Assembly: GCF_056746865.1 (NCBI RefSeq)
Contig: NZ_CM163382.1
DNA length: 64,000 nt
Strand: one strand, 5' to 3'
The notes below the pieces were generated by a model. The model was not told the DNA's origin. It did no database searches and was given only the letters and a program-made list of their open reading frames with translations. A program made the position numbers and the translations under genes. Of this stretch, positions 29,638 to 30,200 are shown one piece after another. Each line of letters starts with the position of its first letter. The first letter of the stretch is position 1.

Positions 29638-29922
29638 TTATTGCGTAACCAGACGGCGTAATCGCGACACATCCACCGTTTTTTCAGCCTCTGCCAGACT
29701 CCAGGCGTTTTGCAGATTCAGCCACATTTGCGGCGAACTGCCGATCACCACGGAAAGTTTAATTGCCATTTCTGGCGTCAAAGCTGCTTTTCCGGTCAGC
29801 AATCGGCTTGCCGTTGAGGGCGCAATTTCCATTGCTCTGGCAAACTCGCGCAGGCTGACATTAAGTTCGTCCAGTGATTCCTGAATAATGTCCCCCGGGC
29901 GGGGATGATTGGCCATTTTCAT
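29638..29922 (-). CDS. yddM: HigA-like antitoxin (XRE-family HTH)
   Basis: 94 aa; HTH region [35 protein letters not shown]; start codon overlaps the stop of the upstream toxin gene. Confidence 0.75.
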
Positions 29923-30200
29923 CAGTGATAGTCCTCGTAATCCAGTATGTATGCATCGCCATTGACGAATTCAAATGTGATTCGCCAGTTGCCCGAGACA
30001 GATATCGCCCAAATTCCATCGCGATCGCCGCTTAACGGGTGTAGTCGGTAACCGGGCATATCGATATCAGCAAGACAGCTTGCCGCATCAATCACAGCAA
30101 GTCGATGGCGTAATCGTTTGACTTGCGTCGGTATAACGCCGGAGGTTTTGCCGAGAAGAAACAAGTCACGCAATCCCTTGTGTCTGAAATTCATTATCAT
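29922..30200 (-). CDS. HigB-like toxin (RelE/ParE superfamily, plasmid-killer type)
   Basis: 92 aa; FRHKGL...KRL...ID.A....D...[44 protein letters not shown] closely parallels Rts1 HigB; toxin-upstream gene order typical of higBA. Confidence 0.75.

Follow-up and report, generated by a model that had tools for sequence, protein, structure and literature searches.

A probably functional chromosomal HigB/HigA-type toxin–antitoxin operon between fdnI and adhP, with a strain-variable toxin, in Escherichia coli

Two small overlapping genes occupy the interval between fdnI and adhP in the window, that is, the whole stretch of 64,000 nucleotides of contig NZ_CM163382.1 that was analysed. They raise the question of whether they constitute a working toxin–antitoxin (TA) module, and how such a module would relate to the K-12 chromosome, where yddM is found at this place. 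An earlier reading, made from the letters alone (the sequence-only reading), had proposed a HigB/HigA-type pair that may vary among strains. Our results indicate, with a probability of roughly 0.9, that the locus carries an intact chromosomal type II TA operon of the HigB/HigA (Rts1/Proteus vulgaris) type that would work as a functional module. This explanation is based on gene structure, homology, catalytic and DNA-contact residues, purifying selection, distribution and operator conservation, and the toxicity, RNA cleavage, neutralisation and autorepression are ascribed to the pair by homology. The pair is already known, from the RefSeq annotation, a TADB entry and the TA literature on AIEC and UPEC, and the structure of the antitoxin has been solved.

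Gene layout and identity of the two proteins

The claimed pair of open reading frames (ORFs), of 92 and 94 amino acids (aa), was found on the minus strand at exactly the coordinates proposed, both in the ORF listing and by direct reading. The first gene of the operon is higB (29922..30200, minus strand; 92 aa, ATG start; RefSeq WP_000605676.1), and the second is higA (29638..29922, minus strand; 94 aa, ATG start), an XRE-type helix-turn-helix (HTH) gene that RefSeq names yddM (WP_000781370.1). According to the ORFs and the RefSeq annotation of the neighbours, fdnI (plus strand) ends at 29410 and adhP occupies 30386..31396 on the minus strand, which bears out the placement of the pair between them. 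The window DNA from 29400 to 30400 is 100% identical to that of E. coli strain CFSAN061770.

The toxin-first order and the overlapping stop and start that had been described were also borne out by direct reading, since higB lies upstream of higA with a 1-nt overlap. At the TGATG junction (29920..29924, minus strand), the TGA stop of higB (29924-29922) and the ATG of higA (29922-29920) have one base in common, the A, and this overlap suggests that translation of the two genes could be coupled. Alignment of orthologous loci indicated that the gene order is identical at every one of them and that the overlap is kept in all, with an ATGA version instead in two Citrobacter. In these two, Citrobacter sp. 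Awk 4 and NCU1, the ATGA overlap gives a 93-aa HigB ending in HA. Putative Shine-Dalgarno-like motifs were read upstream of both genes: GAGGA (29932..29936, minus strand) lies 9 nt upstream of the higA ATG, within the last codons of higB, and AAGGA (30208..30212, minus strand) lies 7 nt upstream of the higB ATG and is kept as aaGGA in most orthologues.

In a PDB search, the higB product matched HigB of P. vulgaris/Rts1 (4MCT_B) with E = 8e-32 and 57% identity, residues 1-92 aligning end to end and without gaps with residues 2-93. The matches to P. vulgaris HigB include 4MCT, 4PX8 and 4YPB, and all PDB matches of the window toxin were HigB or GraT endoribonucleases. The Pfam family HigB-like_toxin (PF05015) was matched over model positions 2-91 of 91 (E = 1.5e-17), and the Pfam scan of HigB returned no other family even at E <= 10. 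NCBIfam gave no specific model match for HigB, and PADLOC had no model for it and yielded only weak HTH matches for HigA; assignment of the toxin to a catalogued defence system is therefore unsupported.

Toxicity and mRNA cleavage by HigB require His54, Asp90, Tyr91 and His92 (Schureck et al. [quoted passage not shown] When the window HigB was aligned with Rts1 HigB, none of these conserved residues was missing; all six (6/6) are identical and at the same positions in the ungapped alignment, and they are also kept in 12 Escherichia and Citrobacter orthologues. Lys57 of P. vulgaris HigB is Ser in the window. Taken together, the identity, the gapless alignment, the Pfam family and the retained catalytic set confirm the claim of a RelE/ParE-superfamily toxin close to Rts1 HigB. 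By analogy, HigB would be a small RNase of the RelE fold that enters the ribosomal A site and cuts mRNA at A-rich codons, in which His54 could serve as general base and Arg73 as transition-state stabiliser, and Tyr91 could act on the leaving group with the aid of Asp90 and His92.

HigA is identical in 94/94 residues to PDB 2ICP/2ICT, deposited as 'antitoxin HigA', and scored 93.7 bits against the TIGR02607 antidote_HigA equivalog, above the curated cutoff of 47.7 bits. These results and the RefSeq name agree with the XRE-HTH partner that had been recognised at the yddM position. The 2ICP structure reportedly comes from Arbing et al. 2010, and Gao et al. 2018 are said to give ChIP-exo sites of YddM in their supplements. 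Pfam HTH_3 spans the N-terminal residues 14-65 of HigA, and the protein aligned with P. vulgaris HigA over residues 7-87 (E = 1e-18). Arg40 is the only base-specific DNA contact of P. vulgaris HigA (PMC12266136); it is kept in the window HigA together with the other DNA-contact residues Ser23, Thr37, Ser39 and Lys45, and Thr34 is replaced by Ala. The literature attributes the 2ICP structure to E. coli CFT073 (PMC6987408). HigA (YddM) would, by analogy, be a dimer with N-terminal HTH that binds and neutralises HigB.

Promoter region, putative operators and flanks

Repeat search and alignments revealed two palindromes upstream of higB, 29 bp apart from start to start. The promoter-proximal one, TTGTTCC-N6-GGAACA (30211..30230), is a putative HigA operator, and the promoter-distal one, TTGTTCC-N7-GCAACAA (30240..30260), which reads TGTTGCG-N6-GGAACA in gene orientation, is a putative second operator. 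The GTTCC/GGAAC arms of the proximal palindrome are invariant across Escherichia and Citrobacter and its spacer varies; the distal palindrome likewise has invariant arms and a variable spacer. Across about 13 species, then, the arms of both are invariant, and the spacers and flanks vary freely, so that the two conserved palindromes look like HigA operators.

Manual reading placed a -10-like hexamer, GATAGT (30230..30235, minus strand), between the palindromes, which is GATAAT in C. gillenii, and a weak -35-like TTGCGC (30252-30257) overlapping the distal palindrome. Because a consensus promoter scan of the adhP–higB interval found nothing at its threshold, we infer the promoter from manual reading and phylogenetic footprinting. 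Repression of P. vulgaris hig operates via two operators, O1 and O2, with one HigA dimer each (PMC12266136), and the O1/O2 layout resembles the two-palindrome layout upstream of the window higB. HigA, alone or in complex, would probably repress the operon at two palindromic operators with the half-site TGTT[C/G]C, which would lie on either side of the -10 region and extend into the -35 region, and the translation of higB and higA could be linked through the TGATG overlap.

Toward adhP, sequence reading found a G+C-rich hairpin followed by the T-run CTGTTTTG (30349..30376, minus strand). The hairpin is carried by both the window and K-12 and is probably the adhP terminator, which would insulate higBA from adhP read-through. 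Between this hairpin and the hig promoter lies a pyrimidine-rich tract, cactcttcttcttttcctcccccatctttcccccc (window 30283-30320, minus strand), that is still pyrimidine-rich in Citrobacter and is absent from the K-12 orphan allele.

On the other side of the pair, a palindromic hairpin (29610..29635), detected as a terminator-like site and an inverted repeat, abuts the higA stop immediately on its 3' side. It has the look of a plus-strand terminator and might possibly form the 3' end of higBA. The spacer between fdnI and higA also holds a BIME (29490..29585), a neighbour and not part of the module. The repeat search and a REP pattern match located its two REP palindromes in opposite orientations (29490-29522 and 29557-29585), in accordance with the BIME that had been noted on the fdnI side. 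Rfam gave sub-threshold matches at the BIME to naRNA4 and ES036, which we take to be REP-derived families. A query including the BIME stretch had a median of 21 matching places per E. coli genome, and the toxin gene alone had one. A further REP-like element, ATAGACCTGATAAGCGAAGCGCATCAGGC, lies at window 10145-10173; compared with the REP at 29557-29585, it has 3 differing positions. Strains vary in the REP/BIME content of their fdnI–yddM spacer, whose length is 227 bp in the window, O157 TR01 and NRG857c, 406 bp in MC1061 (K-12), and as little as about 49-50 bp in EC958 and AR_0374.

Ancestry of the pair and loss of the toxin

Relatives were retrieved by a degenerate DNA-pattern scan with one genome per species, which returned 17 loci. 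The higB–higA pair adjoins fdnI in E. albertii, Escherichia sp. MOD1-EC7003 and at least ten Citrobacter species, and adhP is found on the other side of the orthologous pairs wherever the retrieved flank extends far enough. Identity of the Citrobacter proteins to those of the window was 78-89% for HigB, 87-95% for HigA and 94-98% for FdnI. The dN/dS values of the Citrobacter orthologues against the window (Nei-Gojobori) were 0.035-0.107 for higB and 0.038-0.093 for higA, at a dS of about 0.7-2 in the orthologue comparisons, i.e., at saturated synonymous divergence. No amino-acid change (dN 0) separates the E. albertii toxin from that of the window, despite a dS of about 0.2. By these substitution patterns, higB and higA are both under strong purifying selection.

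The nearest mobile relatives of HigB were found on a Providencia plasmid (Rts1 type; 56.5% identity) and in Escherichia phage GER2 (60.9% identity), and such low identity of the closest mobile relatives argues against a recent acquisition from a plasmid or phage. On the explanation favoured here, the module is old and vertically inherited at the fdnI–adhP locus in Escherichia and Citrobacter. Given that the pair adjoins fdnI across both genera and is under purifying selection, the presence of the toxin looks ancestral and upheld by selection, and the K-12 state looks like a derived deletion.

Decay of higB could also be found in Citrobacter, with a frameshift in C. portucalensis and a remnant of 27 codons (27 aa) in Citrobacter sp. 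FP75. In C. youngae, ACG replaces the first ATG, so that its HigB must start at Met3. The scan also returned a 214-bp contig labelled Clostridium sp. CMCC3677, which encodes the first 36 residues of YddM with 100% identity and almost certainly stems from E. coli DNA contaminating the assembly.

Among complete E. coli genomes, the toxin DNA was present in 1330/5426 (about a quarter), as a single copy each time, and the antitoxin in 5412/5426 (99.7%). The suspicion that this TA module is strain-variable was well founded, as the toxin occurs in that quarter and K-12 is without it. In the K-12 derivative MC1061, yddM is present, the toxin gene is wholly absent and the yddM–adhP spacer is just 145 bp, so that the doubt of the sequence-only reading about the K-12 partner in the fdnI–yddM–adhP interval could be settled: the gene has been deleted outright and not merely damaged. 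The YddM proteins of toxin-less K-12 and the window are identical, their genes differing at 5 nucleotides, each time synonymously. Both palindromes and the -10-like element are retained in the K-12 orphan allele, in surroundings only about 65% identical to those of the window.

For the K-12 loss, the possibility that the toxin ORF had been cut out precisely at a TTCAT microhomology was entertained and dropped after the multi-species alignment, because the roughly 22 nt directly before the K-12 yddM ATG align better with a diverged 3' end of higB. The deletion probably spans from just past the proximal palindrome to about codon 86 of higB, its exact end points being ambiguous.

A second route of loss was found in the ST131-type allele of EC958 and JJ1886, in which a 1-nt deletion in higB codon 33 leaves a 35-aa product that RefSeq flags as 'frameshifted'. 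In the retrieved EC958 locus, this gene lies at L003:601-878, equivalent to window 29922-30200. An exact 76-mer spanning the deletion occurred in 545/5426 complete genomes, which means that 545 of the 1330 toxin carriers, about 41% of the 'toxin-positive' genomes, have a dead toxin beside an intact HigA. Nissle 1917 carries the EC958/JJ1886-type allele without the deletion in the 76-nt stretch compared. With the toxin absent from about 75% of E. coli and frameshifted in 545/1330 of its carriers, the toxin is dispensable, which counts against the main explanation. The toxin of E. coli has been lost repeatedly, by the K-12-type deletion and by the ST131 frameshift, with the antitoxin and operators kept.

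Several toxin-less alleles differ further in the spacer. In AR_0374 (L005:407-554), the distal palindrome TTGTTGCGTAGGAAGGAACAA matches the K-12 TTGTTCCTTCCTACGCAACAA exactly once reverse-complemented. The arms on either side, ATTATTGTT and AACAATAAT, have not changed, so that a short segment seems to have been inverted between the arms of an inverted repeat. For the AR_0374-type spacer, the 80-90% identity class comprises about 1061 genomes. MRSN346647 (L006:890-1007) has a 29-bp deletion between direct repeats GTTCCTTC that fused the two operator palindromes into one hybrid and left the orphan yddM without its upstream -10-like element, and it also carries an IS200/IS605 tnpA in the fdnI–yddM spacer. 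The yddM–adhP spacer of O157:H7 TR01 (L004:1501-1647) is a mosaic of 145 bp, exactly the K-12 length, made up in order of 47 nt of the higB 3' end (100% window-like), a K-12-type distal palindrome and then window-type sequence. Either recombination or an artefact of assembly could account for this mosaic. The yddM DNA of TR01 is 100% identical to that of the window, and that of O157:H7 strain F8092B differs.

Such a distribution could also be read in another way, in which the toxin is a decaying passenger or a remnant not yet lost, and HigA/YddM is a stand-alone autoregulated factor or an 'anti-addiction' antitoxin against plasmid or phage HigB. It would fit the antitoxin being present in 5412/5426 genomes and the toxin in 1330/5426, the unchanged YddM protein (5 differences, all synonymous) and both operator palindromes in toxin-less K-12, and the several independent inactivations (ST131 type, n = 545; C. 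portucalensis; Citrobacter sp. FP75), and the anti-addiction variant would fit the existence of mobile HigB relatives on the Providencia plasmid (56.5%) and phage GER2 (60.9%). However, in genomes that have the toxin, purifying selection acts on it as strongly as on HigA (dN/dS 0.035-0.107), all its catalytic residues are intact, and the E. albertii toxin has accumulated 0 amino-acid changes at a dS of 0.2. Because such dN/dS values and a complete catalytic set contradict a decaying remnant, we regard this explanation as improbable and keep to an intact, functional HigB/HigA operon.

Relation to known systems and implications

The locus has been recorded under different names. In RefSeq, the two genes are labelled 'type II toxin-antitoxin system RelE/ParE family toxin' and 'yddM: HigA family addiction module antitoxin', and TADB 3.0 classes the same locus as higBA (TA027334). 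Bustamante and Vidal (2020) described TA20 (ParE-2/HigA-2) of AIEC strain NRG857c, and in HS and K-12 only the antitoxin is present at the TA20 locus (PMC7232551). The TA20 coordinates in NRG857c correspond to the fdnI–adhP locus, its antitoxin is the same protein (WP_000781370.1), and its toxin is one residue apart from that of the window, S41C. CFT073 HigA (2ICP/2ICT) and NRG857c TA20 are the same system in other strains, with essentially no difference. A 2024 review states that the parE/higA pairs of AIEC 'remain to be characterized', and in the literature we found no experiment on the toxicity of, or cleavage by, the E. coli chromosomal pair. A CFT073 higBA deletion without urinary-tract phenotype (Norton & Mulvey) was set aside, it being ambiguous which higBA was meant.

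That the toxin poisons DNA gyrase as ParE does, and is not an mRNA interferase, as might be gathered from the name ParE-2 and the ParE_toxin superfamily cl21503 in PMC7232551, the treatment under ParE in the 2024 review and the generic RefSeq name 'RelE/ParE family', is scarcely credible against the sole Pfam match, even at E <= 10, to PF05015 HigB-like_toxin, PDB matches that are all HigB or GraT endoribonucleases, the fully conserved HigB set His54/Arg73/Asp90/Tyr91/His92 and the TADB class higBA.

The HigB/HigA-type operon of the window is most similar to the Rts1/P. vulgaris HigB-HigA system (PDB 4MCT, 4MCX, 4YPB, 6CF1 and 9CHL), with which it shares the toxin gene in first position, a 92-aa HigB, a HigA with N-terminal XRE-HTH and Arg40, and two palindromic operators at the promoter, which are putative in the window. 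It differs in that the Rts1 system is plasmid-borne, whereas the window pair has a fixed chromosomal locus, and in that the Rts1 HigA is 104 aa, compared with 94 aa in the window. GraT-GraA of Pseudomonas putida (PDB 6F8S) and HigBA of P. aeruginosa belong to the same HigB-like/HigA family and are much more distant (GraT against the window HigB, E = 3.8e-7; GraA against the window HigA, E = 1.8e-11). The N-terminus of GraT is disordered and serves in regulation, a feature not evident in the window HigB.

The HigB-HigA pair of K-12 (YgjN-YgjM, between fadH and rlmG) shares with the window pair the family name, the toxin-first order and the concept of a RelE-superfamily mRNA interferase. Nevertheless, it belongs to a different lineage, with a C-terminal HTH there and an N-terminal one in the window HigA, as K-12 HigA and CFT073 HigA have been distinguished by the C-terminal and N-terminal position of their HTH (PMC6987408). 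No structure of K-12 HigB or HigA was among the PDB matches of either window protein at E <= 0.01. The two systems have a reciprocal distribution, K-12 having an intact ygjNM and an orphan yddM, and NRG857c and CFT073 the reverse (PMC7232551).

HigA/YddM might, in addition, have a selected function independent of its cognate toxin, such as immunity to incoming HigB from Rts1-type plasmids or phages, e.g., GER2, or the control of other genes. This is a tentative idea and on balance doubtful. A role of its own is suggested because 99.7% of E. coli genomes have retained HigA, and because the protein is unchanged and both palindromes are conserved even where the toxin has long been deleted (K-12 type) or is frameshifted (ST131).

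The finding itself, a HigB/HigA-type operon at the fdnI–adhP locus, is correct but ordinary and has little discovery value. It nevertheless provides a clean example of a chromosomal TA module conserved by descent at one locus in Escherichia and Citrobacter, and of repeated independent toxin loss with antitoxin and operators retained. If HigA/YddM does have a role of its own, the locus would constitute a natural series for the domestication of a TA module into an orphan regulator.
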